Shown: one piece after another, positions 35,260 through 63,984 of the stretch | Position numbering within the stretch: position 1 is the first letter of the stretch | Layout of the letters: each line of letters opens with the position of its first letter | DNA from: Treponema sp. | Lineage (GTDB): Bacteria; Spirochaetota; Spirochaetia; Treponematales; Treponemataceae | DNA: 64,000 nt | NCBI GenBank assembly: GCA_024693715.1 | Contig: JAILKS010000052.1 | Coordinates: 4,214 to 68,213 of the forward strand | Direction of reading: 5' to 3' | The notes under the pieces: model-generated | Told to the model about the DNA's origin: nothing | The model's input: the letters and a program-made list of their open reading frames with translations, nothing else | Database searches by the model: none | Program-made: the position numbers and the translations under genes

Positions 35260-35574
35260 TTGATGAAAAACAATAGCCCGGCAGTTACACCAGAGTTAGT
35301 TGAAGCAACAAAAAAAGAACTTATTGAAATTGCCTCATCTTTAGATCCGAAGTTACTTTTAGAATTTTGTGAATGCATTTTTACGCCTATAGAGATAAAA
35401 GATCTTGTGAACCGATGGCTTTTGGTTAAAGAGATAAATAACGGAGTTCCTCAAAGAATTATTGCTCAAAAGTATGGGATGTCCCTTTGTAAAATAACAC
35501 GCGGTTCAAAAGAACTTAATAAACCGGATAGTGCTTTCAGAAAGATTTTGGATCAGCGTGAAAATAAAAAATAA
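35260..35574 (+). CDS. TrpR-like (YerC/YecD) transcriptional regulator
   Basis: FCECIFTPIEIKDLVNRW...PQRIIAQKYGMSLCKITRGSKELN matches the TrpR-family HTH; AGGAGG SD (ATG 35263 also possible). Confidence 0.85.
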   Translation: MMKNNSPAVTPELVEATKKELIEIASSLDPKLLLEFCECIFTPIEIKDLVNRWLLVKEINNGVPQRIIAQKYGMSLCKITRGSKELNKPDSAFRKILDQRENKK

Positions 35575-37898
35575 TGAATGATGTTTTGATTTTTAATGAT
35601 GTTCCTTCGACCTGGGAACATTATCTCCCGCTAGGAAATGGCCGTCTTGGTGCCATGGTAAAAACAGACCCCTGCAGTGAAATTCTTCAGCTTAATGAAG
35701 AAGGAATCTGGTCCGGAGGTCCTCAAAATAGAATTAATCCTGATTCAAAAAAATATATTGAAAATATACGTTCACTTGTAAAGGAAGGTAAGGTGCTTCA
35801 GGCACAGGAGCTTGCTTTTCAAACTCTCAGTGGAACCTCGGTTAACGAAAGGGTTTATCAGACAGCAGGTGATTTTAAAATAGATTTTTATTCTGAAAAA
35901 AATGCAGGGCTTGCATGCGGTTGGCCTTTGCAGCATAAACCCGACAAACAGGCATATAAAACCTATGAATCATCACTTAATCTTTCGAGCGCCTGCACAC
36001 AGGTAGTTTATAAAGATGAAGAAGGCACGACATTTAACAGAAAAACATGGATTAGTGCAGTTGATGATATGATTTTCATGCTTGTCACTGCAGACAAAAA
36101 GGGAAAAATTAATTTCTGTGGATTTCTTGACCGCGGTAATGATTCAGATAAAATATTTTGCGAAGATAATTTTATTTTTCTTGAAGATTCTCATGGGATT
36201 CCTTTTTGTGTCGGAATCGGAGCAGTAAATAAGGGCGGGACAATTGAAACAAAAGGAGTTTGTCTTACCGGTAAAAAATGTGATGAAGTTCTTTTTTTTA
36301 TAGATATTCAGGCCTTCAAATGGAATAAAAAAATTACAGAAAAAAATTACAGAAAGCTGACTTTAAAAAATACATGGTCTTCAAGATGTAAAAAAAATCT
36401 TTTACAGATGCGGAAAACAATTTTAAATTCTTCCATAAAAAAAGCGGTAGAAGAGATTTTTGAATGGCATGTAAATGAATATCAATCTTACTGGAATAGA
36501 TTTTATCTGCAGATTGGAAAGGAAAATGAAAAACAAAAAACTGTTTCTGAGCTTTTAAAAAAATCTGAAGAAGCCTCATCTGAACTTGTAAATCTTTATG
36601 CTAATTTTTCACGCTATCTTTTAATAAGTTCATCGAGGGTTCCTGGAATCCTTCCTGCAAATCTTCAGGGAATCTGGAACTGTTATATGGCACCGCCATG
36701 GGGAAGTAAATATACAATCAATATAAATGCGCAGATGAATTACTGGCCTGTGAATATGAGTGGTCTTTGTGAATGTGAGCTGCCTCTTTTTGAACTTCTT
36801 GAACGAGCCTACAAAAATGGATGTGAAGCTTCACAAAAAATGTACGGTTGCAGGGGATATGTTCTTCATCATAATACAGATTATTGGGGAGATGCCGCAC
36901 CTCAGGATGCATGGTTACCAGGAACCTATTGGGTGCTTGGAGCGGCATGGCTTGCAACTCATATATGGGAGCATTATGAATACACACAGGATGTTGAGTT
37001 TTTAAAAAGATATTATTATCTTATTCACGAAGCATGTATTTTCTTTGTTGACTATCTTGTTCCGTCTGAAATAAAAGCTTCTGATGGAAAGCCTTATCTT
37101 GTCATTAATCCTTCCTTATCACCTGAAAATTCCTATATAACAAAAACTAACGAGCAGGGAGCGTTATGTGAAGGATGCGAAATGGATAATATGATTCTTG
37201 AGCATCTTTTTAAAAGTTGTCTTTCTGCAAAAAAAGTATTACAGAAAAATGCCTGCAGTAAAAACGGTAAATGTTATAAACCAACGGATTTTGAATCTTT
37301 TGAATATATTCTTAAGCATCTGAAAGCTCCTTCGTTAAATAAAGACGGCTCTCTTATGGAATGGAATACGATTGTAAAAGAGGTTGAAAAAGGACACAGG
37401 CATATATCTCATCTTTACGGACTATTTCCGGGATGTACTATAAAAACTGATGATAAAATCCTTGCAGATGCGTGCAGAAAAACTTTGAACAACCGTCTGA
37501 AAAATGGAGGGGGACATACAGGCTGGAGTCTTGCGTGGATAATGAATTTTTATGCAGAGCTTGGAATGGGAGATATGGTTCTTTCTTCGTTAAAAAATGT
37601 ATTGAGCCGTTCAACGCTTCCTAATCTTTTAGATAATCATCCTCCTTTTCAAATTGACGGAAATTTTGGTTCACTTGCTGCTATTATCCGGATGTTAGTA
37701 CAATCTTCTGTAAAAGAAGACGGAATTTTTGTCGTAAAATTACTCCCAGCTTTACCGGAAGATAAACAGTGGCAGAATGGATGTGTAAAAGGCGTGAGGT
37801 TAAAAGGGGGAGTTGTGCTTGACTTTGAATGGAAAAATGGAAAAATAATTAACAGAAGAATTGTAAGCGGTTCAGAAAAGAAAATTGTTTTTCCATAA
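35574..37898 (+). CDS. GH95 alpha-L-fucosidase-like glycoside hydrolase
   Basis: LPLGNGRLGAMV, NLQGIWN..PPWGSKYTININAQMNYW, HRHISHLYGLFPG, FQIDGNFG; no signal peptide. Confidence 0.92.
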   Translation: MNDVLIFNDVPSTWEHYLPLGNGRLGAMVKTDPCSEILQLNEEGIWSGGPQNRINPDSKKYIENIRSLVKEGKVLQAQELAFQTLSGTSVNERVYQTAGDFKIDFYSEKNAGLACGWPLQHKPDKQAYKTYESSLNLSSACTQVVYKDEEGTTFNRKTWISAVDDMIFMLVTADKKGKINFCGFLDRGNDSDKIFCEDNFIFLEDSHGIPFCVGIGAVNKGGTIETKGVCLTGKKCDEVLFFIDIQAFKWNKKITEKNYRKLTLKNTWSSRCKKNLLQMRKTILNSSIKKAVEEIFEWHVNEYQSYWNRFYLQIGKENEKQKTVSELLKKSEEASSELVNLYANFSRYLLISSSRVPGILPANLQGIWNCYMAPPWGSKYTININAQMNYWPVNMSGLCECELPLFELLERAYKNGCEASQKMYGCRGYVLHHNTDYWGDAAPQDAWLPGTYWVLGAAWLATHIWEHYEYTQDVEFLKRYYYLIHEACIFFVDYLVPSEIKASDGKPYLVINPSLSPENSYITKTNEQGALCEGCEMDNMILEHLFKSCLSAKKVLQKNACSKNGKCYKPTDFESFEYILKHLKAPSLNKDGSLMEWNTIVKEVEKGHRHISHLYGLFPGCTIKTDDKILADACRKTLNNRLKNGGGHTGWSLAWIMNFYAELGMGDMVLSSLKNVLSRSTLPNLLDNHPPFQIDGNFGSLAAIIRMLVQSSVKEDGIFVVKLLPALPEDKQWQNGCVKGVRLKGGVVLDFEWKNGKIINRRIVSGSEKKIVFP

Positions 37899-40778: not shown

Positions 40779-41578
40779 TGAATTATTTTTCTATTACCGG
40801 TGAATTGACCGAAGACGACAGAATTGTAGAATTTCCTTTCTCAAAAAATGGTGTTGCTCTTGTTAATGCGCCAAAGTGCGGTATGACTTTACGTGCGGCG
40901 GGAAGTATGCGCTTCAGATGGTCGGAAGTAAATATGCTGCGTGACAGGACTATTTCAAGTATCTGTGAAAATCAGTTTACTCCAGTCCCAATCGAGTTGA
41001 TTCATTCGCACATAGTTTTTGATATAAATCATCCGACAGATACATATAGAAAACAGGGTGATGGAATTATTACGACAAATAAAAAACTTGTACCTATTGT
41101 TACAGTTGCTGACTGTATGCCTGTATATCTTTTTGACAGAACTACCGGAGTTTTTGGTATAGTTCATTCGGGCTGGAAGGGAACCGGTATTGCAGTAGAT
41201 GCTATTGAACTTGCCGGACAGAAATATGGCGCAAAACCGGAAGATTTTTGTGTTGTAATAGGTCCTCACATTAATGACTGCTGTTATGTAGTAAACGAAG
41301 AACGTGCTGAATATTTTGCAATGAATTTTAATCCTGAATGTATTCGTCCTGTTTCGAAGGATTATAAGCCGGACTGGGATGCAGGAGAAGGAAAACTTTT
41401 TCATCTTTCGTTATTAAAAGCAAATCTTGAGCTTCTAAAAAGAGCAGGTGTCCTTGATGAAAATATTTCGGTATGCACAGACTGCACCTGCTGTAACGAG
41501 CTTTTCGGTTCAAATCGTCGTGAAACTAAAAACAAAATGAATTTTACAGTTCAGGCTGCATTTGTAATAAATGACTAG
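40778..41578 (+). CDS. pgeF: YfiH/PgeF (laccase-domain) family protein
   Basis: DGIIT, TVADCMPV, VHSGWKGT, IGPHINDCCY, CTCC motifs. Confidence 0.88.
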   Translation: MNYFSITGELTEDDRIVEFPFSKNGVALVNAPKCGMTLRAAGSMRFRWSEVNMLRDRTISSICENQFTPVPIELIHSHIVFDINHPTDTYRKQGDGIITTNKKLVPIVTVADCMPVYLFDRTTGVFGIVHSGWKGTGIAVDAIELAGQKYGAKPEDFCVVIGPHINDCCYVVNEERAEYFAMNFNPECIRPVSKDYKPDWDAGEGKLFHLSLLKANLELLKRAGVLDENISVCTDCTCCNELFGSNRRETKNKMNFTVQAAFVIND

Positions 41579-43275
41579 AAATCAGGCGATTCCAGAGGAT
41601 GCATAATCTGATATTCAATTGCATTAAGCTGTTTTTGTATTTTTTCATCACCAGGCAGCCATTCATATTTTTCCCTTATGCTTTGAACTGACTTTAAAAT
41701 ATCCTTGTTTGTATCGATTATTGCATTAAAATAATCAGCCTTAAAAAGCTTGCTGTTTACATTCATGTCTTTTTCAAGCGAATAAGCTATATCAGTGATT
41801 ATCCAGCAGTCTTTTTTGAAAACAAGAGTAACTGTTGCTTCATTTAATTGAACTTGAATGTCATTTTCTTCATCAAGAGTCATAAGAAGATAATAAGAAA
41901 TTTTATGTTTTTCTTCCGTTCCTTCGCTGATATTCAGGGCAGGATATTTTTCCTTTCTTTTATGAAGCTTGTATTCTGTTTCTGTAAGCTTGCCATCTAT
42001 TTTCAGATTTGTAATTCCGTAAAGTCCCGCATACGTGTTTAAAGAAATGTCGGTAACATAGCACAAATATTCTGACGGTGAAACAAAGCCTTTTCCCTGT
42101 GAATATGCTTCCCTTTGTTTTCCGAGTACAAAAATGTTTCCTATTGTGTCTATATATTTTGAAACGGTTTTACCCTTTGCAATCGCATCAAGAAATGTAA
42201 CGTCTTTTCTGTTCACACCGTCGAAGAATGCTTCAATCGTTTGTTCTGCCGTTAATCCTACTGAACAATAGTCATCAAGATGACTTGAAGTAAAGGATTT
42301 TATTGTGATGAAGATTCCTATAAAGATTGCTGTCATTACAAGAATACGCTGTGTATTACGTCTAATTGTTCTTTTTGTTTTTATTCTTGCTGCTTTTGTT
42401 TTAAGATATGTACTGCATTTTTCTTCTATATCTTCTGAGAAAATTTCAGGATGAAGTACATCTTTTTCGCTGAATAAAAGCTCAAGAGGAAAATCAGGAA
42501 CAGGCTTTAAATCTTCAACATCCTTTCCTTTTCTTTTTTTGCCCGGAACCTTTACGATATTTGAATTTAATATTAATCCTTTGTTTATCGCAGAACTGAG
42601 TTCTTTATCAAGGTTGTCTACAATCATTTCTACAGGAATAAAGTTACGGTCCAGGTAATCGGCATTGCGTTCTATCTGCTTCGGGTTTGTAAACGGAAGA
42701 CGATTACATAAAAGAGAGTAGGCGTAAACACTTCTTTGAAAACATATTGCAGAAAGTCCATTAAGAGTCGGGTTTAAATAAAACCCCTTTTCTTCTGAAT
42801 ATTCGCTGGCATTAAGTGAATTTGCCGCATAAGAAAAAAGATTTTCCGGTATAAGAAGGATTGAAACCTTGTTATCTGAAAAATCAATTATAGTTCCGCC
42901 GGGACCATTCATCGGTAAAGAAACATTTTCTTTTGCAGCCTGTGTTAAAAGACAGCAGAGTGCATAATAAGCATCTTTTGTCTGTTTGTTGTTTTTTTGT
43001 ATCAGTTGTAAAAGCGTTTCGGCTTTTGAAGAAAGACAGTTTTCTCCGCAGTAAAAAACAATGCGCTCCTGTCTTCCTTCAACGTTAAAAGATTTGATTT
43101 CAGAAAAAGACCAATCTGAAAAATTGAAATTGAATTGTCCGTTGGAGGAATAGTCGCTTACCGCAAAAATTCCTTTTTCAGTTACAATATCATTGTATTT
43201 TGTTTTTCCGAAAATATATTCGTCAAGTCTGCTGTTTAATTTTATTGTATCTTTTTCTATTGAAATCAAACTCAT
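41575..43275 (-). CDS. Single-pass membrane protein of unknown function, co-transcribed with hflKC
   Basis: One TM (ILVMTAIFIGIFITI); overlaps the hflC stop; possible degenerate kinase-like N-terminal lobe. Confidence 0.6.
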   Translation of the reverse strand: MSLISIEKDTIKLNSRLDEYIFGKTKYNDIVTEKGIFAVSDYSSNGQFNFNFSDWSFSEIKSFNVEGRQERIVFYCGENCLSSKAETLLQLIQKNNKQTKDAYYALCCLLTQAAKENVSLPMNGPGGTIIDFSDNKVSILLIPENLFSYAANSLNASEYSEEKGFYLNPTLNGLSAICFQRSVYAYSLLCNRLPFTNPKQIERNADYLDRNFIPVEMIVDNLDKELSSAINKGLILNSNIVKVPGKKRKGKDVEDLKPVPDFPLELLFSEKDVLHPEIFSEDIEEKCSTYLKTKAARIKTKRTIRRNTQRILVMTAIFIGIFITIKSFTSSHLDDYCSVGLTAEQTIEAFFDGVNRKDVTFLDAIAKGKTVSKYIDTIGNIFVLGKQREAYSQGKGFVSPSEYLCYVTDISLNTYAGLYGITNLKIDGKLTETEYKLHKRKEKYPALNISEGTEEKHKISYYLLMTLDEENDIQVQLNEATVTLVFKKDCWIITDIAYSLEKDMNVNSKLFKADYFNAIIDTNKDILKSVQSIREKYEWLPGDEKIQKQLNAIEYQIMHPLESPDF

Positions 43276-44291
43276 TATCTTTTACCGTCCGAACTGTATA
43301 AATAGTCAAAGTAATCCATGCTTGTGCTGTAGGTTGCATCAAAATCCTTGAGTGTTTTCTTGTATGATTCCATACTTTTCCAGAAGGCAAAGAATTCAGG
43401 ATCTTTATTGTAAGCTTCTGCATAGATTTTTGCTGCTTCCGCATCTGCCGCACCTTTTATTTCTTCTGCTTTTCTGTAAGCTTCAGATTCAATTGTGCGC
43501 TTGTCATTTTCAAGTTTACCAAGGAGTTTCGCTTTTTCACCTTCACCGGTTGAGCGGTACTGCTGTGCAACCTGATTTCTGTCTTTAATCATACGGCTGT
43601 AGACATCTTCGGTAAGCTTGTCGTTGAACATGATTTTTCTTGGAACAATGTCAATGATTTCAATTCCAAAATCAGAAATGTTCTTGCTTGCTTCCTTGAG
43701 CATAAGTTTACAGATTTCTTTTCGTCCGATAGAGATTATTTCATTTTCATTTTCGTTGATTGAAGTTGTATCTGAAGATGCTTCTTCATTTTCAGCATTT
43801 TCTTCAGTCTGATTTTTTTCACTTTCAATTCCATCTGAAACAATTCGTTCATTTATGATGTTAGTTGAGCGGACTATTTCACTTAATCTGTTTTGTGTGA
43901 TGATTGTTCTACAGGCATTATCAATGATGTCGCTTATGTCATTGTATCCTTTGTCCAGCTTCTGGAATCTCTGATAGAATTTTACAGGATCTGTGATTCT
44001 CCATCTTGCAGAAACATCAAATACAATAAGTCTGTTTTCTTTTGTTTGAATTTCCTGTAAATCACCATCTATAGACAAGGTTTTCTTTGGAAATGTCGTT
44101 ACGATGTCAATGAAAGGAATCTTAAAGTAAGCACCTGCTTCAGTATGTGTTGCAACGATTTTTTTGATTCTGGTTACTACAACCTGTTCACCTTCGTTAA
44201 CAATGTAAAAAGGCTTTGCAGCGATTGCAACTACAACTACTATTATTAAAGCGCAAAGTAAGAATAATGCTTTTTTGAATTTTGCTGCCAT
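43275..44291 (-). CDS. hflC: FtsH modulator HflC
   Basis: SPFH domain; YSRMIKDRNQVAQQYRSTGEGE, ADAEAAKIYAEAY, FFAFWKSMESY. Confidence 0.92.
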   Translation of the reverse strand: MAAKFKKALFLLCALIIVVVVAIAAKPFYIVNEGEQVVVTRIKKIVATHTEAGAYFKIPFIDIVTTFPKKTLSIDGDLQEIQTKENRLIVFDVSARWRITDPVKFYQRFQKLDKGYNDISDIIDNACRTIITQNRLSEIVRSTNIINERIVSDGIESEKNQTEENAENEEASSDTTSINENENEIISIGRKEICKLMLKEASKNISDFGIEIIDIVPRKIMFNDKLTEDVYSRMIKDRNQVAQQYRSTGEGEKAKLLGKLENDKRTIESEAYRKAEEIKGAADAEAAKIYAEAYNKDPEFFAFWKSMESYKKTLKDFDATYSTSMDYFDYLYSSDGKR

Positions 44292-44292
44292 A

Positions 44293-45252
44293 TTAGTTTC
44301 CTCCCTTCAAAGTTTTTATTGGAAGAACGTTTTCAAGTTCACTGTCAATAAGTTCAGGCTTGTTTTCTCCTGATAATATTTCTTCCATAGTTTCAAGATA
44401 AAGACGTTCCTTTGTTACCTTTGGAGCACGCTTATATTCTTCATAAACTGCATTGAATCTTGCAACATCACCTTTTGCCTTGTTAATACGTTCTGTTGCA
44501 TATCCTTCAGCAATCTGAATCTGACGGTCAGCTTCACCCTTTGCCTTAGGAATTTCTGTGTTGTATGCTTCTTTTCCTTCATTGATAAAGCGTTTCATGT
44601 CCTGGTCTGCCTTGTTTACATCTTCAAAGGCTTCACGAACATTTTCCGGTGCCTGAATGTTCTGGAAAATTACACCGCATACTGTAATTCCAAGCTGAAG
44701 GTCATTAAAAGTATCGTTCATCATTTTAATTGCTGCTTCCTGAATAGGAGTACGTGCAGAACCTATAACATCAAGAATTGCATAATCACCAATCAATGTA
44801 TTTATTGCAGAGCGAGAAACATCATCAATAGTATTTTCCCTTTCCTGAATACTGAACAGCCATTTCATAGGATCTGTGATTTTGTACTGAATTGTCCATT
44901 CAACATCAACAAGATTTAAATCGCCCGTAAGCATTGTTGATTCTTCAAGGATACCGTTTTTATATTCGCTGTTTCTTCCGGCTTTTACTGTTCTGAAGCC
45001 GTATTGTTTTGTAAGAAGAGTTGTAACAGGAACATTGTAATTCTTTTCTATACCGAAAGGTAATTTGAAATGAACTCCAGCCTGTTCTTCTGTCCGCACG
45101 AATTTGCCGAATCGTGTAATAACAGCCTGTTCAGTGGTATCAATAAGATAAAATCCGCTGATTCCAGCAATTATTATCAGAGCAAGCACGACTATCCAGA
45201 AAAAAGAAATTTTCCCCAGTTTTTTCAGTTTGCCACCGTTATTTTTCATCAT
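44293..45252 (-). CDS. hflK: FtsH modulator HflK
   Basis: AVITRFGK, GVHFKLPFGIE, MLTGDLNLVDV, VREAFEDV, PKAKGEA, VTKERLYLETME. Confidence 0.92.
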   Translation of the reverse strand: MMKNNGGKLKKLGKISFFWIVVLALIIIAGISGFYLIDTTEQAVITRFGKFVRTEEQAGVHFKLPFGIEKNYNVPVTTLLTKQYGFRTVKAGRNSEYKNGILEESTMLTGDLNLVDVEWTIQYKITDPMKWLFSIQERENTIDDVSRSAINTLIGDYAILDVIGSARTPIQEAAIKMMNDTFNDLQLGITVCGVIFQNIQAPENVREAFEDVNKADQDMKRFINEGKEAYNTEIPKAKGEADRQIQIAEGYATERINKAKGDVARFNAVYEEYKRAPKVTKERLYLETMEEILSGENKPELIDSELENVLPIKTLKGGN

Positions 45253-47236: not shown

Positions 47237-48583
47237 TTATTGTTCTTTACTGAGCATTAAGTTTGTAAGGATTCCAAGAATTAATGCACAGGCAACAGTT
47301 CTGATTTCTACAGCGCCGAAGTTCAAAACCATTCCGCCTACACCTGTAATAAAGATTACTGATGCAACAAAAAGATTTCTGTTTTTGTTTAAATCTACCT
47401 GCTGGAACATCTTGAAACCCGAAACTGCAATAAAGCCGTAAAGTGCGATGCAGACTCCACCCATTACACATGAAGGAATAGTTTCAAGGAAGGCAACAAG
47501 CGGTGTGAGTAAAGAGAAGATTATACAGATGAAAGCACATCCCCAGATAGAAATTGTAGATGCGTTTCTTGTAATTGCAACACAACCGATAGATTCACCG
47601 TAAGTTGTATTTGGACAACCGCCGAAGAATGCACCTGCCATAGAACCGATTCCATCACCGAGAAGTGTTCGTGTAAGGCCTGGATCTTCTGTAAGATCTT
47701 TTCCGACGATTGTTGAAAGGTTTTTATGATCGGCAAGGTGTTCTGCAAAAACTACAAATGCAACAGGAACATAAGCAGAGAACAAAGTAAGGATATATTT
47801 AGCTGAAACAGCTTTTAATCCTGCAGTTCCTCCAAGAAGGAATGTGAATTTTGGAAGAGAAATCCAGCCGCTTAATGATTTGAAATTTAATGATGTTAAT
47901 GCACTGTAATTGATGACGATTAACGAAGTGTTTTTAGTTGCATAACCGATTAATGCGAAGATAGAAGCAACGATATAGCCTGCAAGAATACCGATAATAA
48001 AAGGAATTAATCTTCCTGCCTTTTTGCCGTATGTAGAACAAAGCATTGTAACAGCAAGAGTAACAAGTCCGCAGATAAGTGCAACATAAGTGCTTCCTCC
48101 GTCGATGTTTGATTTCATCAAATCACCTACAGCATTTCCTGAAAGGCTTAATCCAATGATTGCAACTGTCGGACCAATAATAACTGGTGGCATTAATTTG
48201 TTTATCCATTGTACACCGAAGAATTTTATTACCACTGCAATGATTACATAAACAAGACCTGCCATGACAGCACCGATGATAAGTCCCCAGTAACCAGCCT
48301 GCTCTGCAAGACCTAATGTTGCTGCTCCACTGAATGCAGAAAACATTGAACCAATGAAGGCAAAAGAACTGCCTAAGAAAACAGGGCTTGAACTTTTTGT
48401 AAACAGCAGATAAATGATTGTTCCGATACCGGCTCCGAATAATGCTGCTGATGCTGATAATCCGTGTCCGATAATGGCAGGGACTGCGATAGTAGCAGCC
48501 ATAATTGCCAGAAGCTGTTGTAATGCGAACAATACAACTTTGCCGAGCTTTGGCTTGTCTTTGATTCCGTAAATCAAATCCAT
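47237..48583 (-). CDS. uraA: NCS2-family uracil/xanthine permease
   Basis: LQQLLA, PVFLGSSFAF, PNTTYGESIG, VMGGVCIALYGFIA motifs. Confidence 0.88.
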   Translation of the reverse strand: MDLIYGIKDKPKLGKVVLFALQQLLAIMAATIAVPAIIGHGLSASAALFGAGIGTIIYLLFTKSSSPVFLGSSFAFIGSMFSAFSGAATLGLAEQAGYWGLIIGAVMAGLVYVIIAVVIKFFGVQWINKLMPPVIIGPTVAIIGLSLSGNAVGDLMKSNIDGGSTYVALICGLVTLAVTMLCSTYGKKAGRLIPFIIGILAGYIVASIFALIGYATKNTSLIVINYSALTSLNFKSLSGWISLPKFTFLLGGTAGLKAVSAKYILTLFSAYVPVAFVVFAEHLADHKNLSTIVGKDLTEDPGLTRTLLGDGIGSMAGAFFGGCPNTTYGESIGCVAITRNASTISIWGCAFICIIFSLLTPLVAFLETIPSCVMGGVCIALYGFIAVSGFKMFQQVDLNKNRNLFVASVIFITGVGGMVLNFGAVEIRTVACALILGILTNLMLSKEQ

Positions 48584-48643: not shown

Positions 48644-49870
48644 TTACAGTTTATATACAGTTCCATCCTTTATGATTTCTATTATAATTTCTACGACAGA
48701 TGGATCGAACTGCTTGCCTGCGCATCTTTGAAGCTCCATGATAATTCTCTCTTCGCTGAATTTTAATCTGTAGCAGCGGTTTGCAGACATTGCATCATAC
48801 GAATCTGCAACACAGACTATTCTTGCTACAATAGGAATGTCATCTCCCTTTAACCGGTTAATATAGCCGTTTCCGTCATATCTTTCGTGATGATAAAGAA
48901 CTGCATCATTAATTACAGGAAGAATCGTAAAGTTCTTTAAAAGCTCGGCACCATTTGCAGTATGCTGCTTGATAAGTCCCCATTCATTGTCCGAAAGATG
49001 CGAGGTTTTGTTTAATATTTCATCAGAAATCGTAATTTTTCCTATATCGTGCATGAGTCCTGCATAATACATGTTTCTTGTTTCAGTTTCATTAAATCCC
49101 ATGCGCCGTGCAATTTCTTTTGTATAAGCTGCAACTCTTGTGGAATGACCGCGTGTGTATGGATCCTTGTTATCGATGAAGGTTGTAAACGTTTTCATCG
49201 TCTGTTCAATAAGTATGCTGTCGTGAAGCATTTCCTGTTCATGCTTTTTTATTTGTGAAAGCATTGAATGGTAAATGATGATTGAAATTACTAGCATGGA
49301 AGTTAAAATCAGCATAATAAGGCAGCAGATATTGAATACAAAGTTTTTTGAAATATGATGAATTTCTGTTCCGCTTACTTCTGCACAATCAAATTCAAAA
49401 AAAGCCTTTGAATGAATTATAAAACCGAAGGTTTCCTGTGAGTTCGGCTTTATGATTTCATTTCGTTTTTCTTTTGGTGTGATGAAAAGTTCATCCTTTT
49501 GAATTTCTGCATTACAATTCCAGGTGTTTTCAAGAAAAGAACCTTTTGGAATCTGAAGTTTTATTTCCCAGTTTGAAAAATCAAAATCTTTTGTGTTAAT
49601 AAAAATTACGTCATAAGCGGTTACAATAGATTTATCTTCTTCAACCCATGTATTTGTTCTCTTTACAGAGACATTGATTATATTTGTTGAATTAACAGGT
49701 TTTCTTAATGAATCCTGAGAAAAGGTCATGGAACGGTGCATTACATTTTTTAAATAAATACTCCAACCGATTGTTCCTAAGGAAGCAATACCGAAGAACA
49801 CAGAAAGTATTATCATTACTTTTTTTATTTTATTTTTCTGGTACATCATAGCATTGAATTTATTATACAT
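48644..49870 (-). CDS. Membrane HD-GYP phosphodiesterase with CBM2-like periplasmic domain
   Basis: Two TM helices flank a CBM2-like domain. C-terminal YTRGHS, HDIGK, HHERYDGNGYI (GYP read as GYI), VADSYDAM. Confidence 0.85.
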   Translation of the reverse strand: MYNKFNAMMYQKNKIKKVMIILSVFFGIASLGTIGWSIYLKNVMHRSMTFSQDSLRKPVNSTNIINVSVKRTNTWVEEDKSIVTAYDVIFINTKDFDFSNWEIKLQIPKGSFLENTWNCNAEIQKDELFITPKEKRNEIIKPNSQETFGFIIHSKAFFEFDCAEVSGTEIHHISKNFVFNICCLIMLILTSMLVISIIIYHSMLSQIKKHEQEMLHDSILIEQTMKTFTTFIDNKDPYTRGHSTRVAAYTKEIARRMGFNETETRNMYYAGLMHDIGKITISDEILNKTSHLSDNEWGLIKQHTANGAELLKNFTILPVINDAVLYHHERYDGNGYINRLKGDDIPIVARIVCVADSYDAMSANRCYRLKFSEERIIMELQRCAGKQFDPSVVEIIIEIIKDGTVYKL

Positions 49871-49934
49871 CTGTTTTCTGATTTTTCAATTAAAAAAATA
49901 AGTTTAAAAAAAAATATGATAGATTTTTATTTTA

Positions 49935-49962
49935 TGGACAAATGAAATAAAACTGATATAAT
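49935..49962 (+). promoter_or_regulatory. Sigma70 promoter with extended -10 for the MCP gene
   Basis: TGGACA (49935-49940), 16 nt, with TG-A-TATAAT (49954-49962). Confidence 0.55.
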
Positions 49963-49996
49963 GTTAATTATACTATAGTACTTATAAGGGGTATTT

Positions 49997-52102
49997 ATGT
50001 CAGATTCAGCTTCTACAATCAGCGTTACAAAACCTTCTAAGCGGAGAAGTCTTGGAAGAAAATATGGTTTACTTACAATTCTTGCGGTTTTCGCTCTTAT
50101 GGGTATTCTTCTTACTGTAGTTACCTGGGGTGTTCAGAAGTATTCTACAGCTTCTTATTATGATATGTCTGAAGAGCTTGTAAACGGACGTTCGCAGGAA
50201 ATTAAAAAATGGATTTCGAATTATGAAAATGATTTAAGGATTTATTCGGAATCTGATGTTGTAAAAACTGGTGATGCAAATGCCGTAATAGAATGGCTTC
50301 ATAATCATACGAATTTAAGAAATCCTGATTATGATTATATGTTTTTCTGTACCCCTGACGGAACTTCTTATCGTGATACAGGTCTTATAGGAAATAAGGG
50401 AGCCCTGCTTGAGCGTGATTATCATAAGGCTATGATGCTTGAAGGAAAGGATGTGTTTGTCGGAAAGATGGTTCTTTCAAAAACATCTGGTCAATATGTA
50501 CTTCCAATTGCACGTCCTGCAAAAGACAGAAACGGAAAGGTTTTCGGATATTTTGTCGGAATGCTCGGTGTAGGTGCAATCGGAAAAGAAATTGCAGAAT
50601 TTAAGATTGGTGAAGAAGGTTATTTCTGTCTTTGTGACAGGGCAGGACAGTTCGTTGCACACCGTGATGAAAAAATGATTATGGAAAGCATAGATCTTTA
50701 TCCTGAAGTTAAAACTCTTGCTCTTGAACAGAAAACTGACAGGACAAAAATTGTAATTGATCAGGTAGAATGTGAAGCTTTCGTATCTCACGTAGATGGT
50801 CCTGAAATGACAACCTGTTTTATAGTTTCTTCACGTCAGATTAATACTGTAACTACAATGCTTCGTAATATAGTAGTAATTGCTTCTGTAGTAATTGCAA
50901 TTATTGTTTGTATTCTTATTGAAATGATTATCTTCACTATCATTGGAAGATTAAATAAGGTTAATAGGCTTGTTGAAAAGCTTTCTACCGGTGATGCTGA
51001 CCTTACAGTTCGTCTTAAGATTAACCGCAATGATGAAATCGGTGCACTTATTGCATCCGTTAATGCCTTCCTCGAAAAGTTCCATTCAATCATGATAAAT
51101 ATTAAAGATTCTGAAAAAAATCTTTCGGAAGGCGGAACAACGCTTCTTGAAGAAATATCGACTACAACATCTACAATTTCACAGATGGCAAATAACATCG
51201 GTCTTGTAAATGAACAGGTAAAAAATCAGACACAGTCGGTTGAAAGTTCAGCAAGTGCAATTACAGAAATTACAAGAAATATTGAATCGCTCGATGCAAT
51301 GATCCAGGGACAGGCTTCTTCTGTAGTTCAGGCATCTGCAGCGGTAGAAGAGATGATAAGCAACATCAATTCTGTAGATAAATCTGTAGTAAAGATGGTT
51401 GATGAATTCAGTATTCTTGAATCTGATACAAGAAACGGTATTGAAAAAAATACATCAGTTAATAATCTTATTCAAAGAATTGCACAACAGTCTACTTCAA
51501 TGGTAGATGCCAATACAACAATTCAGAATATTGCAGAACAGACAAACCTTCTTGCTATGAATGCGGCAATTGAAGCTGCTCATGCGGGCGAAGCAGGACG
51601 CGGTTTCTCTGTAGTTGCCGATGAAATCCGTAAGCTTGCAGAAACATCAGCAGAGCAGTCTAATAAAATCGGTGAAGAACTTACAAGCATTCAGAATGGT
51701 ATTTCAGATGCGGTTGAAGCTTCTTCTGAATCTGAACGTTCCTTCCAGGCAGTTTCTGCACGTATTGCTGATACTGGAAATATTATTTCTGTAATCAAGA
51801 GCGCTATGGAAGAGCAGCAGTCTGGTTCTCATCAGATTCTTGAAGCACTTCAGAATATGAATGATAGTACGGCGGAAGTTCGTGGAGCTGCTGCAGAAAT
51901 GACTCGCGGTGGTGAAGCAATTATGCACGATGTTTCAACACTTAAAGAAAGTATGACAAGTATTGAAACAGCAATTTCTGAAATTCATGATGGTACAAAT
52001 TATGTAAATGACAGTACAAATAAGCTTCGTGATGTTTCGGTTTCATTCTCAGATTCAATCAAACAGATTAGTGACGATGTAGACAGATTTAAGGTTGATT
52101 AA
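49997..52102 (+). CDS. Methyl-accepting chemotaxis protein (dCache-type sensor, HAMP, MA)
   Basis: TM1, periplasmic Cache-like region, TM2, [56 protein letters not shown]. Confidence 0.95.
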
Positions 52103-53285: not shown

Positions 53286-53314
53286 TTGTATAAAACGCAT
53301 AAATTTTGTATACT
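53286..53314 (+). promoter_or_regulatory. Sigma70 promoter of the his-def-fmt-aro-rpiA operon (leaderless candidate)
   Basis: TTGTAT (53286-53291), 17 nt, TATACT (53309-53314), 6 nt, ATG 53321; no SD. Confidence 0.55.
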
Positions 53315-53320
53315 ACTGTT

Positions 53321-54613
53321 ATGGTAATATCATCTATAGATTTAGAAAACGGACATGTAGTTCAGCTTAAAAACGGTAAAGACCTTGTTTTACAAAGAGA
53401 TGACGCAGATGACCTTATAAAAGATTTTGATTTTTACGGTGAAGTGGCGGTTATAGATCTTGATGCAGCAAAGGGAAATATTGATTCAAAAGGATATACT
53501 GTAAATACACCCTTGTTAAAATCACTTTTAAGAAAAGGTAATGTTAGAACAGGCGGTGGAATCAGAACTGTAAAAAGGGCAAAAGAGCTTATTTCTCTTG
53601 GTGCAGAAAAGGTTATAATCGGTTCAGCTGCATGGAATCCTTCTCCCGCAGATAATGGTTCTGTTTTAAATAAAGATTTTCTTGAAGAGCTTGTAGAGGC
53701 TGTCGGTAAAGACAGAATCATAATAAGTGTAGATTCAATCAACGGTAAGATCGCAGTTAAGGGATGGACAGAAACTGTTGATATTTCTCTTGTAGAAGGT
53801 GCTAAAGAAGCAGAAAAATATTGTTCAGAGCTTTTATTTACATGTGTTGAAAAAGAAGGCTGCATGCAGGGTACAGATATGAATTATGTAAAGCAGCTTA
53901 GAGATGCGGTAAAATGCCGTGTGGTTGCAGCAGGTGGAGTTTCATCGGTTGAAGAAATTGCAGCTCTGGAAAAATTGCATTGTGACGTTCAGCTTGGGAT
54001 GGCTTTATATACAGGTAAGGTTTCGCTTAAAGATTCTTTCATTGCTTGTCTTAATTTTACTAAGGGTGATATGATTCCTGTTATTGCACAAAGCGTTAAC
54101 GGTCAGGTTTTGATGCAGGGCTTTGCAAATAAGACTGCCTTTGAAAAAACTTTTGAAACAAAAAAGCTTACCTTCTGGAGCCGTTCAAGAAATGAGCTTT
54201 GGACAAAGGGTGAAACAAGCGGAAATTATTTGAACGTTGTTAAACTTCGACCGGATTGTGACAGAGATTGTGTTCTTGCAACTGTTGTTCCTGTCGGTCC
54301 GTCATGTCATACCGGAAGCTGGACGTGTTTTTCTTCAGACCCGGACGAAATATCTTCTATGGGAAGACTTTATGATATAATTGCAGACAGATTTGCAAAT
54401 CCGAAGCCTGGAAGTTATACAGCAACGCTTGATTCAAAGCGTGTTCGTGAAAAGGTTGAAGAAGAAGCGGAAGAATTATGTGAAGCAGAAGCAAAGGAAG
54501 ATGTTATCTGGGAAGCTGCTGATTTATTGTATTTTATAAATGTTCTTCTTTATAAAGAAGGTGTTACCTGGAAGGATGTTTATGATGAACTGGATAAGCG
54601 TCATAAAAAGTAG
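53321..54613 (+). CDS. hisA/hisIE: Trifunctional HisA-HisI-HisE fusion
   Basis: HisA barrel (SSIDL, GGGIR, IGSAA, AAGGVSS), HisI (FWSRSRNELWTKGETSGN, DCDRD, SCHTG..TCF), HisE (GSYTA, KVEEEAEE, WEAADLLY). ATG 53321 preferred over TTG 53306. Confidence 0.92.
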   Translation: MVISSIDLENGHVVQLKNGKDLVLQRDDADDLIKDFDFYGEVAVIDLDAAKGNIDSKGYTVNTPLLKSLLRKGNVRTGGGIRTVKRAKELISLGAEKVIIGSAAWNPSPADNGSVLNKDFLEELVEAVGKDRIIISVDSINGKIAVKGWTETVDISLVEGAKEAEKYCSELLFTCVEKEGCMQGTDMNYVKQLRDAVKCRVVAAGGVSSVEEIAALEKLHCDVQLGMALYTGKVSLKDSFIACLNFTKGDMIPVIAQSVNGQVLMQGFANKTAFEKTFETKKLTFWSRSRNELWTKGETSGNYLNVVKLRPDCDRDCVLATVVPVGPSCHTGSWTCFSSDPDEISSMGRLYDIIADRFANPKPGSYTATLDSKRVREKVEEEAEELCEAEAKEDVIWEAADLLYFINVLLYKEGVTWKDVYDELDKRHKK

Positions 54614-60776: not shown

Positions 60777-62144
60777 ATGTTTAATCCGTTTAGTGAAGAA
60801 CTTGCACGTCATTATTGTCTTGATTTGATTGATGATATTGAAAATGGTGCGCTTATACTTAAGCAGATATCACGAATCAGTTATGAAAGAATGAATCAGG
60901 GAATAATGACAGGCTCTCTTGTATGCTGGGACAGTTCCAGTAAAAAGAGGATTGTCCTTCATGCTGTAAGTGGAATCTCAAAGCAGATTTATACAAAGAA
61001 ATCAAAAAGTGTTTATGTAAAAAACGGTATAAAACATATTATTGTACAACCGGTTGCCAGTGGAAAAAAAATAACACGCGCATTACGAAAAAATGACAGA
61101 AGGATTCATCTTCTCACCGATAAAATCAACAGTTGTGAAGCAGTACAGAAAAAAAATGTAGAAAAAATCAGTTTGATGAATATCCGGAAAAGATTATGTG
61201 ATGAATCATTAAAAAAAGTTTTTTCACTTTATAAATTTCATTGTGCCGGTAAAAAAACAATCACCTTGAATCAGATTATAAAGCAAAGAAAAGCTCTGGT
61301 GCCAACCGGAACAGGAGATTGCTGTGAGCCAAAGCTGTTGAATTATGCATTTAAGAAAAATCTTGAAATAATCAGTATGGCACAGGTCTTTTATGATTCA
61401 GAAAAGAAAATGGAATCTGTTGAGCCATGCGATGAACGCTGTGGAATTCTTTTTCCATATCTTCTTGGCGTCGAAATTGTTTATCAGGATTCTGCAATTG
61501 TTGTTGTAAATAAACCGTCCGGATTACTGTCTGTGCGTGGAAAAAAACAAAAGGATTGTGTCGAACAGCGTATCATAAATATCTATAAGGATTGCATTGA
61601 GCAGTGTGCTGTTCATCGTCTTGATATGGAAACTTCTGGACTTCTGGTGCTTGCAAGAACAAAGGATGCTCATAGAGCCTTGAACATTGAATTTATGAAT
61701 TCACTTGTAAAGAAAAAATACATTGCAGTTCTTGACGGGATTCTTGAAAGAACAGATGAAAAATATAAAACACTTGAGAGCGGCAGATTTGAATTACCTT
61801 TCCGGCTTGATGTAAATAATCGTCCGCATCAGATTTATGATGAAAAAGACGGAAAAAACGGGATTACGTTATGGCAGAAGGATGGAATTGCCTGTGTAAC
61901 TGTTGACGGTAATAAAAAAATCAGGGGTTCAAAAATCATTTTTACACCGCTGACCGGTCGTACACATCAGCTCAGGCTTGCAAGTGCAGATTCACACGGT
62001 TTTAATCTTCCTATAATGGGAGATTCTCTTTATGGAAAGTGTGAAAAAAATCAAAGGCTCATGCTTCATGCCTCTGAAATTGAATTTTTGCATCCTGTCT
62101 CAGGGCAGAAGATGATTTTTAAAAAGGATTTTATTTTCAGTTAG
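60777..62144 (+). CDS. RluA-family pseudouridine synthase with N-terminal deaminase-like domain (TrcP-like)
   Basis: C-terminal VVVNKPSGL, HRLD, GRTHQLR, GDSLYG, LMLHA. N-terminal GTGDCCEPKLL...PCDERC matches CxE + PCxxxC zinc-deaminase motifs. Confidence 0.85.
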   Translation: MFNPFSEELARHYCLDLIDDIENGALILKQISRISYERMNQGIMTGSLVCWDSSSKKRIVLHAVSGISKQIYTKKSKSVYVKNGIKHIIVQPVASGKKITRALRKNDRRIHLLTDKINSCEAVQKKNVEKISLMNIRKRLCDESLKKVFSLYKFHCAGKKTITLNQIIKQRKALVPTGTGDCCEPKLLNYAFKKNLEIISMAQVFYDSEKKMESVEPCDERCGILFPYLLGVEIVYQDSAIVVVNKPSGLLSVRGKKQKDCVEQRIINIYKDCIEQCAVHRLDMETSGLLVLARTKDAHRALNIEFMNSLVKKKYIAVLDGILERTDEKYKTLESGRFELPFRLDVNNRPHQIYDEKDGKNGITLWQKDGIACVTVDGNKKIRGSKIIFTPLTGRTHQLRLASADSHGFNLPIMGDSLYGKCEKNQRLMLHASEIEFLHPVSGQKMIFKKDFIFS

Positions 62145-63984
62145 CTTTTTTCTGGTAGCTTGCCTTTACTGCTTCTACGAAAAGACTGTTCTGGTCACTT
62201 CGTTCCGGAACAGAGAACATCGGTTTACCGTCATTCGGCGATATTCTGTAAATGTTCATTGGATCAGTTGTATATGCAGGACTTCCAGGATTGTTTATCC
62301 ACCAGTCTAAAACTGATACAAAGCAAAGGGTATATTTCAGAAGATTTGCATTTGTTGCATTTGTCGTCGCAGTTTTATTCTGCGCTCCAAGAAGAACATC
62401 AAGTCGTTTTGAAACTTCATTCTGAATGTCAAATTTATAATGATCCCATGGATTTTCAAGAAGGGGTACTGTTCCTTTTGTTGCTGCAGCCTGGTCACAT
62501 TGTTTAACTACAATCGTAAGGTATTTTCTTGCAAAATCTGTGCGGTGGAACATCGGACGGTATTTACTTTCATCTGAAGGACGTTCCAGAAGAAGCTGGT
62601 CAAATTTGAAGTTAGGCAAAAAGTGATAGGTTGTCTGCCATAAAAGGGAAGTGAGTATTTTTTTACCGAGCATTGATTTTTCAAAATCTGCCTGTGAATA
62701 AACTGAATTAGTGAAGTTTGTCAGAGGCTGGCAGTAAAGACGTTCAAAGGTGTCTTCTCTGTATGCCGACCATTCATCAAGAATATCCTGGATAGTATCG
62801 GCATCATTTTTTGCACCGTCTGCCTTTGCAAATTTCATGTTACGACAGCTCTGGAAGCAGTCTTCGATAATTCTTTGAAGGACTATCACTACTTGAAGAG
62901 GGTTTTCCGGTGAAAGACAGTTGAAGCCGTCTGCAAATTTATACAGAGGCTGGAAGTAAGGAAATAAATCAGGGTGTTCATCAAGACGGTCAAAGCCTGC
63001 TTCAGGGAACATTTGATTTAATAGCTTCAGTCCTGTTATTACCGATGAATCTTTTGCACCCTTTGTCGGAGCAGCAGGCTTTGCTTTATCTTCTTTTTGT
63101 GACGATTCATCCTTTTCCTTATCCGGAAGAAGAAGATCGAATTTATGAAGTCCGGTAAATTTCAAGATTTCGGCAACCTTTGCAGAGAAGAAATCAGGAT
63201 AATCCTCATAAGTATCAGAGCACATCCTCATTAAAATAGGATAGAATTTTTTGATTACTTCAGTATCAATGTAAAGCCATTCAGTAATTGCCTGTTTTGC
63301 CATTGTAGAAAGCTTTTCTTTCGGTGAGTCCGGATAGTTTACCTCATCATTGTAGATTTCCTTGATGAGCTTAGGAATCTTATTGTTTCCGTAATAGTAG
63401 ATAGTCATCAAAGGCTTGTATACAAGTCGCATAAGTTGTGTCAGATCACAAAGAAGCATTGGCTGCTGAACCTGTTTGAGTGATATATATTCTGTCTTGA
63501 TGCCTGACATTCCCCATTCAGCAATCATTCTTAAAAATTTAAATTTTGCTTCAGAACCGTTAACGATTTTAGATTTGTATGTTGCCGGAGCAATCTGAAT
63601 TAAAGTTTTTGTTACGGTGATAAAAGCTTCCATGTGCTCAATTGCTTTTTTAATTGTGTAGTCATAGAACGAATAGTTGATTTTTTCAGTTCCGTTTTTC
63701 TGAAGGGCACGAAGGAAATTAAAAAATCCGTAGTTTGGTTTGATTTTATATTCAGGCGACATCATAACCTTATCGAACATGTTATTTACTTTTTTAGGAA
63801 TGTTCGGTAAATCTTCACGAATATGACGTCTGGCAGGAGTTACAGATGGTTTTGAGGAGCTTGAGGAACCTGATGATGAAGATGAACTTGTTGTAGTTCT
63901 GACAAGTCTTCCGCTGTTATTATGGTTTCCATTGCCGCTGCTTGAACGTTCGTACATTACTTCACCGCCAAGCTTTTTTGCCAT
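62137..63984 (-). CDS. Conserved-looking hypothetical protein (helical); true start uncertain
   Basis: 615-aa ORF with a Ser-rich N-terminus. The frame stays open to the window edge upstream of ATG 63984, so the gene may be 5'-truncated here. Confidence 0.7.
   Translation of the reverse strand: MAKKLGGEVMYERSSSGNGNHNNSGRLVRTTTSSSSSSGSSSSSKPSVTPARRHIREDLPNIPKKVNNMFDKVMMSPEYKIKPNYGFFNFLRALQKNGTEKINYSFYDYTIKKAIEHMEAFITVTKTLIQIAPATYKSKIVNGSEAKFKFLRMIAEWGMSGIKTEYISLKQVQQPMLLCDLTQLMRLVYKPLMTIYYYGNNKIPKLIKEIYNDEVNYPDSPKEKLSTMAKQAITEWLYIDTEVIKKFYPILMRMCSDTYEDYPDFFSAKVAEILKFTGLHKFDLLLPDKEKDESSQKEDKAKPAAPTKGAKDSSVITGLKLLNQMFPEAGFDRLDEHPDLFPYFQPLYKFADGFNCLSPENPLQVVIVLQRIIEDCFQSCRNMKFAKADGAKNDADTIQDILDEWSAYREDTFERLYCQPLTNFTNSVYSQADFEKSMLGKKILTSLLWQTTYHFLPNFKFDQLLLERPSDESKYRPMFHRTDFARKYLTIVVKQCDQAAATKGTVPLLENPWDHYKFDIQNEVSKRLDVLLGAQNKTATTNATNANLLKYTLCFVSVLDWWINNPGSPAYTTDPMNIYRISPNDGKPMFSVPERSDQNSLFVEAVKASYQKKAN

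Follow-up and report, generated by a model that had tools for sequence, protein, structure and literature searches.

A CBM2-family beta-sandwich as the predicted periplasmic sensor of a membrane-bound HD-GYP phosphodiesterase in a rumen Treponema

The window analyzed here, the whole 64,000-nucleotide stretch of DNA from Treponema sp. taken from NCBI GenBank assembly GCA_024693715.1 (contig JAILKS010000052.1, positions 4,214 to 68,213 of the forward strand), carries on its minus strand a gene for a predicted membrane-bound HD-GYP phosphodiesterase, in which two transmembrane helices (TM1 and TM2) enclose a domain related to family 2 carbohydrate-binding modules (CBM2). An earlier note, made from the nucleotide sequence and a list of its open reading frames (ORFs), had proposed that this module is the sensor of the enzyme, and the ORF of 408 amino acids at 48644-49870 is present exactly as given there. 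The protein consists of TM1, an extracytoplasmic beta-sandwich of about 125 residues, TM2, an unbroken helix of 59 residues, and the HD-GYP domain. As judged from sequence profiles and a predicted fold, the middle domain is a genuine, if divergent, CBM2, and the protein is a candidate receptor that would couple the binding of an oligosaccharide outside the cytoplasmic membrane to the hydrolysis of a cyclic dinucleotide inside it.

The motifs quoted in the earlier note were all found in the translation (VSVKRTNTW75, YDVIFIN92, SNW101EIKLQIPKG, NTW117NC, ITP132, and IIKPNSQETFGFI), and nucleotides 49678-49406 do encode residues 65-155. Hydropathy analysis placed two hydrophobic segments (residues ~17-40 and ~176-205) on either side of the middle domain, and a full-length AlphaFold model (pLDDT 94.3, pTM 0.70) showed a helix at residues 2-43, strands from 45 to 170, and an uninterrupted helix at 177-235. 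In this model the sandwich runs directly into TM1 at its first strand and into TM2 at its last, so that the sensor lies flush on the membrane without a stalk. A Pfam scan of the protein found no HAMP, PAS, or GAF domain between TM2 and the HD-GYP domain. Basic residues follow TM2, and the N-terminal tail is rich in lysine. Because an HD-GYP domain has to be in the cytoplasm, the domain between the two helices is expected on the outer side of the cytoplasmic membrane. The nearest relatives at the level of genomes are metagenome-assembled genomes (MAGs) of Treponema from ruminant and horse guts, with 88% identity to a MAG from water-buffalo omasum and 48-54% identity to three others, one of them assigned to T. 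bryantii. The host is thus a rumen Treponema, a diderm spirochaete, for which the term periplasmic, used for the sensor in the earlier note, is borne out by the predicted topology. The start codon may lie slightly inside the annotated frame: the first ATG (49870) is preceded by no clear Shine-Dalgarno sequence and has no methionine counterpart in the 88%-identical ortholog at locus L001, while the M8 and M9 codons (nt 49849 and 49846) are conserved, and M8 at nt 49849 may be the true start.

Assignment of the middle domain to CBM2 draws on homologs, profiles, and the predicted fold. The window sequence alone gave a sub-threshold match to Pfam CBM_2 (PF00553; E=0.0029, 18.4 bits against a cut-off of 24), and its match in the Protein Data Bank (PDB) was at E=0.93 only. 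An exhaustive HMMER search with the sensor alone against 1.84 billion representative sequences recovered 107 proteins; among these and the window sequence, 104 of 108 match Pfam CBM_2, the best at 2.5e-65, and the same set contains CBM49 in 64 sequences, a cellulase domain of glycoside hydrolase family 5 (GH5) in 10, and HD_5 in 18. When the sensors of five orthologs were combined into a profile, six PDB sequences were matched, CBM2 every one. A 42-member profile matched 3ndy_E at 1e-10, Cex at 1.5e-8 and 5.7e-8, ChiC at 3.4e-7, and a Pyrococcus furiosus chitin-binding domain (ChBD) at 3.5e-7, and 12 of its 13 PDB matches at E<=1 were CBM2-type modules. The earlier note had named a Foldseek search as one check on its CBM2-like domain. 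Run with an AlphaFold2 model of residues 41-178 (nine strands; pLDDT 94.2, pTM 0.86), this search placed CBM2 structures at ranks 1-4 and at most of the first 17, with probability 1.00 and target-normalized TM-scores of 0.55-0.70. The top CBM2 structures (3ndy, 6qfs, 2rtt, 5dhd, 2cwr, 1e5b, and 1exg) include by name EngD, Cex, Chi18aC, the Thermococcus and Pyrococcus ChBDs, and the CBM2b of xylanase D; the CBM3-like structures of RsgI matched the sensor model at E~1e-2 only. The disulfide that joins the N- and C-termini in CBM2a-type modules is absent, as there is no conserved cysteine pair, and the termini are held by the transmembrane helices instead. This terminal disulfide is not universal in CBM2.

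The putative binding face can be placed by comparison with Cex. In hidden Markov model (HMM) alignments, W101 corresponds to the core residue W38 of Cex, W117 to the platform residue W54, and the tyrosine of a 'DYN' motif found in part of the family to the platform residue W72. Within a family of 121 members, W101 is kept in all but one, W117 is invariant, and W75 is present in 112. W75 is the probable counterpart of the platform residue W17 of Cex, the tryptophan of the canonical W-x-x-G motif. This register is favored because the 'TNSW' of P0078, a GH5-borne relative, aligns on the 'TNSW' of the EngD CBM2 with a four-residue gap, because 114 of 133 enzyme-borne or secreted domains have a gap in the column that follows the hairpin, and because in the model strand 65-76 carries W75 at its tip and leads into a five-residue hairpin. 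The ungapped register, in which W75 would equal the core residue W12 of Cex, was judged less likely in view of the P0078/EngD match, the hairpin column, and the strand boundary at residue 76. The third aromatic position is lysine or arginine in the window protein and is without an aromatic in all 61 'WNC/GY[IMV]' Treponema-type sequences. The 41 members with a tyrosine there all belong to the 'WNG/DYN/GYP' Lachnospiraceae-type subtype, and the W-W-(Y/W) triad is complete in the enzyme-borne relatives. The claim that two of the three surface tryptophan positions survive, with loss of the third, is therefore probably right, and by these residues the Treponema subtype is more degenerate than the Lachnospiraceae subtype. 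With two putative platform tryptophans, the window module resembles CBM2b in its residues. Two-tryptophan CBM2b modules are functional binders of single xylan chains. Beside W117 and N118 lies C119 (nt 49514-49516), the only conserved cysteine, which is invariant in the Treponema subtype only and might form an intersubunit disulfide or a redox site. The subtype markers also co-vary across the membrane, periplasmic 'WNC' without the third aromatic occurring with cytoplasmic GY[I/M/V], and 'WNG' and the 'DYN' tyrosine occurring with GYP.

The catalytic half scores 116.8 bits with Pfam HD_5 (PF13487; cut-off 27.2, E=1.1e-33), the match extending over residues 228-392. The metal ligands H242, H274, D275, H303, H327, H328, and D356, together with K278, align with those of V-cGAP3 and PmGH, and the binuclear ligands and K278 are invariant or nearly so across sets of 22 and 72 family members. 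The HD, HHE, and D ligands described as intact in the earlier note are all found (H274-D275, H327-H328-E329, and D356/D359), as is its GYI reading at G335-Y336-I337. In the family of 121, the third residue of the GYP motif is proline in 58, isoleucine in 30, methionine in 21, valine in 7, and leucine in 4; residues other than proline are confined to the WNC (Treponema) subtype, to which the window belongs (I337 codon, nt 48860-48862). This distribution marks GYI as a variant of GYP specific to the clade. The proline of GYP is not a metal ligand. PmGH binds its third iron with a glutamate (DPETQNH); the window protein has a tyrosine there (DPYTRGH), as does the active V-cGAP3, which predicts a site of the binuclear type and not inactivity. 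By its residues the output domain is a catalytically complete HD-GYP, and nothing indicates an inactive enzyme. Its best solved relatives are V-cGAP3 (5z7c, 2.6e-40) and PmGH (4mcw, 3.2e-33), while the best NCBIfam match is a cyclic di-GMP (c-di-GMP) phosphodiesterase family of the NosR type (1.3e-40, below its cut-off). In Treponema pallidum, HD-GYP domains are present and EAL domains absent (10.1101/2021.11.05.467447), so c-di-GMP is the default expectation for an HD-GYP of this genus and, by analogy, the most likely substrate.

The fusion of CBM2 and HD-GYP is not a one-off. A full-length family profile matched 2690 proteins at E<=1e-40; the best 120 of these were all 383-462 amino acids long with E<1e-139, and many have precomputed matches to both PF00553 and PF13487. 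The architecture is thus common to at least 120 protein clusters (at 90% identity) from Treponema and Butyrivibrio-type Lachnospiraceae; this taxonomy draws on a few named matches, the only names among the matches listed being "HD-GYP domain-containing protein [Treponema sp.]" and "HD domain-containing protein [Butyrivibrio sp.]". Among representatives at 50% identity, 17 other than the window protein are full-length, and about 14 more are fragments with the order TM-CBM-TM that are truncated by contig ends. The family was sized by the exhaustive HMMER search and the full-length profile; a word-seeded search of 5.8 billion proteins, which returned one near-identical fragment for the sensor alone and four matches for the 42-member profile, was unfit for this purpose. 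Retention of the architecture in no fewer than 120 full-length clusters is counted here, as a sign of selection, in favor of a functional receptor.

The nearest relatives of the sensor outside signaling proteins are secreted tandem-module proteins and GH5 enzymes, and one GH5 partner matches classic endo-beta-1,4-glucanases such as Bacillus Cel5A at 1e-97 to 1e-105. These cellulase-borne relatives would make beta-1,4-glucan fragments the first-choice class of ligand. Many proteins of ~270-300 amino acids, secreted or anchored at the N-terminus, consist of two tandem copies of this CBM2 subtype with no catalytic domain (P0008, P0011, P0013, P0016, P0018-P0026, and others); these could be adhesins or fiber-binding proteins. 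On the side of the catalytic half, a protein of 1003 amino acids from a Lachnospiraceae MAG (L006:3790-6798, JAFLTF010000024.1) joins Reg_prop repeats and a single transmembrane helix to an HD-GYP domain 40% identical to that of the window. The Reg_prop propeller is the sensor type of the glycan-sensing hybrid two-component systems (HTCS) of Bacteroides, and by analogy it is a putative second type of glycan sensor on the same catalytic module. A 292-amino-acid HD-GYP protein from a Treponema MAG (L004:5743-6618, JAZQOB010000088.1) shares 63% identity with the catalytic half of the window protein, and its two transmembrane helices are joined by only a short loop, with no CBM2. It is either a sibling that lacks the sensor or the ancestral form that preceded capture of the CBM2. 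Together these two proteins indicate that the catalytic module has been combined with different outside sensors.

The gene lies upstream of an NCS2 uracil-permease-like transporter gene (Table 1). The 60-bp gap between the two contains no obvious terminator, the permease gene has a strong ribosome-binding site, and the adjacency is kept at three of four Treponema loci (L001, L002, and L005), so that the two genes are probably co-transcribed. The pairing of a nucleobase transporter with a predicted cyclic-dinucleotide hydrolase is curious. Upstream and divergent, at 49997-52102 on the plus strand, is a gene for a methyl-accepting chemotaxis protein (MCP) of the dCache-HAMP-MCP type, and a divergent MCP gene is also present in L001 and L002. 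More generally, the Treponema loci keep the nucleobase permease and either an MCP or an Mbeg1-like gene, while the Butyrivibrio-type members are monocistronic and adjoin two divergent aminotransferase genes. A conserved neighborhood of c-di-GMP effectors was not found at the family loci examined, no GGDEF or PilZ domain occurs among the window ORFs scanned, and a GH5 gene located 2.5 kb away in L081 is not conserved. Gene context neither supports nor contradicts glycan sensing.

The gene is present in 20 public sequencing runs from bovine, sheep, and other gut metagenomes, two of which are bovine metatranscriptomes. Contigs from the latter cover most of the gene at ~5-10x word depth, and one contig (48270-49319) spans from the HD-GYP gene into the permease gene. 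This is consistent with modest genuine transcription and with co-transcription of the permease, although such evidence from contigs is weak and DNA may have been carried over. Within the MCP gene, metatranscriptome depth rises 4-6 fold at 51475-51661 with many loose ends; this spike is attributed to assembly or mapping and not to a feature of the locus, because the conserved MCP signaling hairpin collects reads from paralogous or heterologous chemoreceptors.

Table 1. Coordinates of the gene, the parts of its product, and its flanking features within the window
Feature	Position	Strand	Basis or remark
Gene for predicted membrane-bound CBM2-sensor HD-GYP phosphodiesterase, 408 aa, ATG	48644..49870	-	ORF and domain matches
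Lys-rich cytoplasmic tail, residues 1-16	49823-49870	-	Precedes TM1
TM1, residues ~17-40	49751..49822	-	Hydropathy; helix 2-43 in full-length model
Periplasmic CBM2-family beta-sandwich, presumed ligand-binding sensor, residues ~45-170	49361..49738	-	Homologs, PDB profile, AF2/Foldseek
W75 codon, probable platform Trp (= Cex W17)	49646..49648	-	W in 112/121 members
W117 codon, platform Trp (= Cex W54, EngD W), followed by near-invariant N118	49520..49522	-	W in 121/121 members
TM2, residues ~177-205	49256..49342	-	Hydropathy; part of continuous helix 177-235
Cytoplasmic continuation of TM2 helix into first HD-GYP helix, residues 206-235	49166..49255	-	Single DSSP helix 177-235, pLDDT >90
HD-GYP catalytic domain, residues 228-392	48695..49189	-	HD_5 match and PDB alignments
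GYP-motif position, G335-Y336-I337	48860..48868	-	Sequence read; HHERYDGNGYI, all kept but Pro
NCS2 uracil-permease-like transporter gene, downstream, 60-bp gap	47237..48583	-	Pfam Xan_ur_permease; NCBIfam uracil permease 5e-84, below equivalog cut-off
AT-rich divergent intergenic region, 126 bp, presumed promoter	49871..49996	.	Sequence; zero RNA contig depth 49792-49978 in both runs

Taken together, homology, the platform residues, the architecture, and the habitat of rumen and gut Treponema make it slightly probable, on balance, that the protein is a periplasmic oligosaccharide receptor that drives cyclic-dinucleotide hydrolysis. In the mechanism proposed for such a receptor, a soluble beta-1,4-linked oligosaccharide from plant cell walls, of the cellodextrin type as first choice and a xylo-oligosaccharide as second, would enter the periplasm and lie across the W75/W117 aromatic platform of the CBM2. 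As the strands of the sandwich are fixed to the transmembrane helices, binding would shift TM2 relative to TM1, probably within a dimer, and this shift would travel down the continuous helix and alter the activity of the HD-GYP domain. With the sensor clamped in place without a linker, the signal would have to pass by displacement of TM2 along this helix, as in other two-TM receptors. The altered level of c-di-GMP would then bias the choice between motility and attachment or exopolysaccharide production in the neighborhood of degrading plant fiber; as to direction, a low-confidence guess is that the ligand activates the phosphodiesterase and the cells stay motile. The "fiber-sensing" role suggested in the earlier note stands in part. 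Fiber could be sensed only indirectly, through its soluble products; direct contact with insoluble fiber appears out of reach of a module that has no stalk, is clamped to the membrane, and lies beneath an outer membrane or a Gram-positive wall, so that diffusible oligosaccharides or glycans of the envelope would be the accessible ligands. Still more tentatively, and falling a little short of probable, the protein would be the founding example of a widespread, hitherto unrecognized receptor family in the fiber communities of rumen and gut, in which a cellulase-type CBM2, caught between transmembrane helices, reports plant oligosaccharides to c-di-GMP turnover.

Several observations weigh against an oligosaccharide receptor of this kind. 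The Treponema subtype to which the window belongs has no third platform aromatic; W75 is replaced in two of the five closest orthologs (by leucine in one and by arginine or phenylalanine in the other), and its placement on the platform depends on a gapped alignment, as an ungapped one would make it a core residue. From these residues, the Treponema clade may bind weakly or bind something else. No conserved carbohydrate-active enzyme (CAZyme) or sugar-transporter genes were found around the family loci examined, whether of the Treponema or the Butyrivibrio type. In the catalytic half, the tyrosine in place of the third-metal glutamate of PmGH and the specificity of the top PDB match for 3'3'-cyclic GMP-AMP (3'3'-cGAMP) likewise count against the proposed output.

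An unlikely alternative, though one that deserves weight, is that the CBM2 binds an endogenous glycan of the envelope, such as the beta-1,4-linked N-acetylglucosamine-N-acetylmuramic acid (GlcNAc-MurNAc) chain of peptidoglycan or a self-made beta-glucan or exopolysaccharide, and so reports the status of wall or matrix, gives feedback on synthesis, or merely localizes the enzyme. A module flush with the membrane and without a linker would meet envelope polymers as the most abundant reachable glycans in both diderm and monoderm members of the family; many CBM2 modules bind chitin, a polymer of GlcNAc, and chitin-binding examples are among the top structural matches (2rtt, 5dhd, 2cwr, and 8ose). 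The lack of conserved CAZyme or sugar-uptake genes nearby would also be expected. However, the nearest relatives in sequence are borne by cellulases and not by chitinases or wall hydrolases, the family is concentrated in plant-fiber habitats, and genes for cellulose synthase or exopolysaccharide production were not seen beside any member examined. Should an envelope ligand nonetheless be the right one, the module may read the cell's own beta-1,4 glycans, either peptidoglycan or a secreted glucan, as feedback on envelope or matrix synthesis controlled by c-di-GMP.

It is slightly more doubtful that, at least in the Treponema subtype, the CBM2 is a scaffold that has lost glycan binding and serves a non-carbohydrate signal, a protein partner, or the holding together of a dimer, with the enzyme being constitutive or regulated elsewhere. 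The loss of the third aromatic throughout the 61 sequences of the WNC subtype, the substitutions of W75 among close orthologs, the missing CBM2a terminal disulfide, and the subtype-specific invariant cysteine adjoining W117 would all fit such a loss, and the L004 homolog demonstrates that the catalytic module can exist without a sensor. Yet more than 120 sequences keep W117 and N118 without exception or nearly so, and W117 occupies a surface platform position of CBM2, which is hard to explain by folding alone. Two-tryptophan CBM2b modules, among them the 1xbd and 1e5b structures matched here, are functional xylan binders, and the Lachnospiraceae subtype keeps the full cellulase-type triad.

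The receptor might instead work as proposed on a substrate other than c-di-GMP, namely 3'3'-cGAMP or another cyclic or linear dinucleotide, a reading that overlaps the oligosaccharide receptor but that we consider improbable. Its best solved relative is the cGAMP-specific V-cGAP3 of Vibrio cholerae (5z7c, E=2.6e-40), with which it shares the tyrosine at the third-metal position that sets both apart from PmGH. Nevertheless, identity to V-cGAP3 is moderate, HD-GYPs active on c-di-GMP score nearly as well (4mcw at 3.2e-33, and 4r8z), the best NCBIfam match is to a c-di-GMP phosphodiesterase family, and HD-GYP is the type of c-di-GMP hydrolase found in Treponema, which lacks EAL (10.1101/2021.11.05.467447). 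Finally, a chance or compositional likeness of a generic beta-rich periplasmic loop to CBM2, for which the single-sequence scores (18.4 bits against 24 in Pfam; E=0.93 in the PDB) might speak, is refuted by profile matches reaching 1e-10, by the 104 of 108 sensor-sharing sequences that match CBM_2, and by the Foldseek probability of 1.00, and we give it practically no credence.

Elsewhere in the window, four ORFs had no Pfam match at E<=1e-5: 41575-43275 (-), 62137-63984 (-), 8519-9904 (-), and 32086-33231 (+), encoding 566, 615, 461, and 381 amino acids, respectively. The first of these is directly downstream of two SPFH/Band-7 genes (43275-45252), an adjacency conserved in L001. An ORF of 435 amino acids at 53306-54613 (+) encodes a triple fusion for histidine biosynthesis, made up of His_biosynth (a HisA/HisF-type barrel), PRA-CH, and PRA-PH. 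A Maf-type putative flagellin glycosyltransferase (MptE-like and Maf_flag10_N) is encoded at 18733-20304 (-), and a GH95 glycosidase gene at 35574-37898 (+) adjoins an FGE-sulfatase-like gene and a DUF5312 gene. By homology, these genes suggest flagellin glycosylation and the use of plant or host glycans by this Treponema.

The proposed receptor matters in that spirochaetes and many clostridia rely mainly or solely on HD-GYPs for c-di-GMP hydrolysis, and it bears on the signals that these enzymes sense. It offers a testable case, with a well-understood carbohydrate-binding fold, candidate ligands that can be purchased, platform tryptophans to serve as control mutants, and cultivable hosts in Treponema bryantii and Butyrivibrio. 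If the reading is true, an extracytoplasmic ligand would for the first time be defined for an HD-GYP, and the breakdown products of fiber would be linked directly to the decision between motile and attached life; the receptor would show the coupling of polysaccharide-product detection to second-messenger control, a step in the colonization of rumen fiber, and would carry the RsgI precedent of carbohydrate-binding modules as sensors beyond sigma and anti-sigma factors into nucleotide signaling. Synthetic receptors could also take up the compact TM-CBM2-TM cassette as a module for glycan input.

Among known systems, the sensor is most directly compared with the CBM2 modules of glycoside hydrolases, including the CBM2a of Cex from C. 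fimi (1EXG/6QFS), EngD of C. cellulovorans (3NDY), the CBM2b of C. fimi xylanase D (1XBD/1E5B), and ChiC of Streptomyces (2RTT), with which it shares fold and sequence, notably the core tryptophan W101, the N92, F148, and G149 motifs, W117, and probably W75. Unlike these modules, which are appended to glycosidases by linkers, it sits between the two transmembrane helices of a signaling protein; it has an extra N-terminal strand, its beta1-beta2 hairpin is longer by 4-5 residues, and it lacks both the terminal disulfide and the third aromatic of classic CBM2a. The hosts differ as well, the window family belonging to Spirochaetota and Bacillota, whereas the classic CBM2 structures are actinobacterial and proteobacterial.

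As a sensor, the closest precedent is the RsgI anti-sigma-I family of Clostridium thermocellum, in which extracellular CBM3, PA14, or GH-type modules sense polysaccharides (PMC10328401, PMC4711584, PMC6852018). The window protein would resemble RsgI in placing a carbohydrate-binding module, here a CBM2, outside the membrane as a polysaccharide sensor for a cytoplasmic response. However, RsgI has one transmembrane helix and a long stalk that passes through the wall to insoluble substrate, while the window protein has two such helices and no stalk; and regulated proteolysis of RsgI frees a sigma factor for a transcriptional output, while the window protein contains no proteolytic or anti-sigma module and its predicted output is second-messenger hydrolysis. 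Membership in the RsgI family was rejected, as no RsgI_N or Sigma_reg domain was found by Pfam and the protein has two transmembrane helices and an HD-GYP output; a weak match to Sigma_reg_N (0.0023) occurs in only 2 of the 108 sensor-sharing sequences. The HTCS of Bacteroides (Reg_prop/Y_Y_Y) likewise fuse a periplasmic sensor of glycan fragments to a cytoplasmic output, but do so with a beta-propeller and a histidine kinase/receiver/AraC output in place of a CBM2 sandwich and an HD-GYP.

With respect to its output, the window protein has the one-component layout in a single polypeptide (TM, extracytoplasmic domain, TM, and HD-GYP) and so falls in the same class as membrane HD-GYPs with dCache, PBPb, or CHASE2 sensors, such as TM1170 and TM1682 of T. 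maritima, from which it differs in that its sensor is a CBM2. A survey of HD-GYP proteins lists these three domains as extracytoplasmic partners in predicted receptors, never mentions a carbohydrate-binding module, and states that no HD-GYP with an extracytoplasmic sensor had been experimentally characterized (10.1101/2021.11.05.467447). Literature on CBM2, carbohydrate-binding modules, or cellulose-binding domains together with HD-GYP or c-di-GMP yielded incidental co-mentions only, and the earlier note's statement that it knew of no characterized example agrees with our finding none. The sensor family is thus one not previously noted for cyclic-dinucleotide enzymes, while the two-TM HD-GYP receptor class itself has already been described. 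The catalytic domain is homologous to those of V-cGAP3 (5Z7C), PmGH (4MCW), and P. aeruginosa PA4781 (4R8Z), with shared binuclear ligands, lysine, and HHExxDGxGY motif. It departs from the solved HD-GYPs in the exchange of the GYP proline for isoleucine and, in common with V-cGAP3, in the tyrosine that replaces the third-iron glutamate of PmGH. All three are soluble enzymes whose N-terminal regions are REC, GAF-like, or tandem HD-GYP, while the predicted regulator in the window protein is a transmembrane CBM2 sensor.

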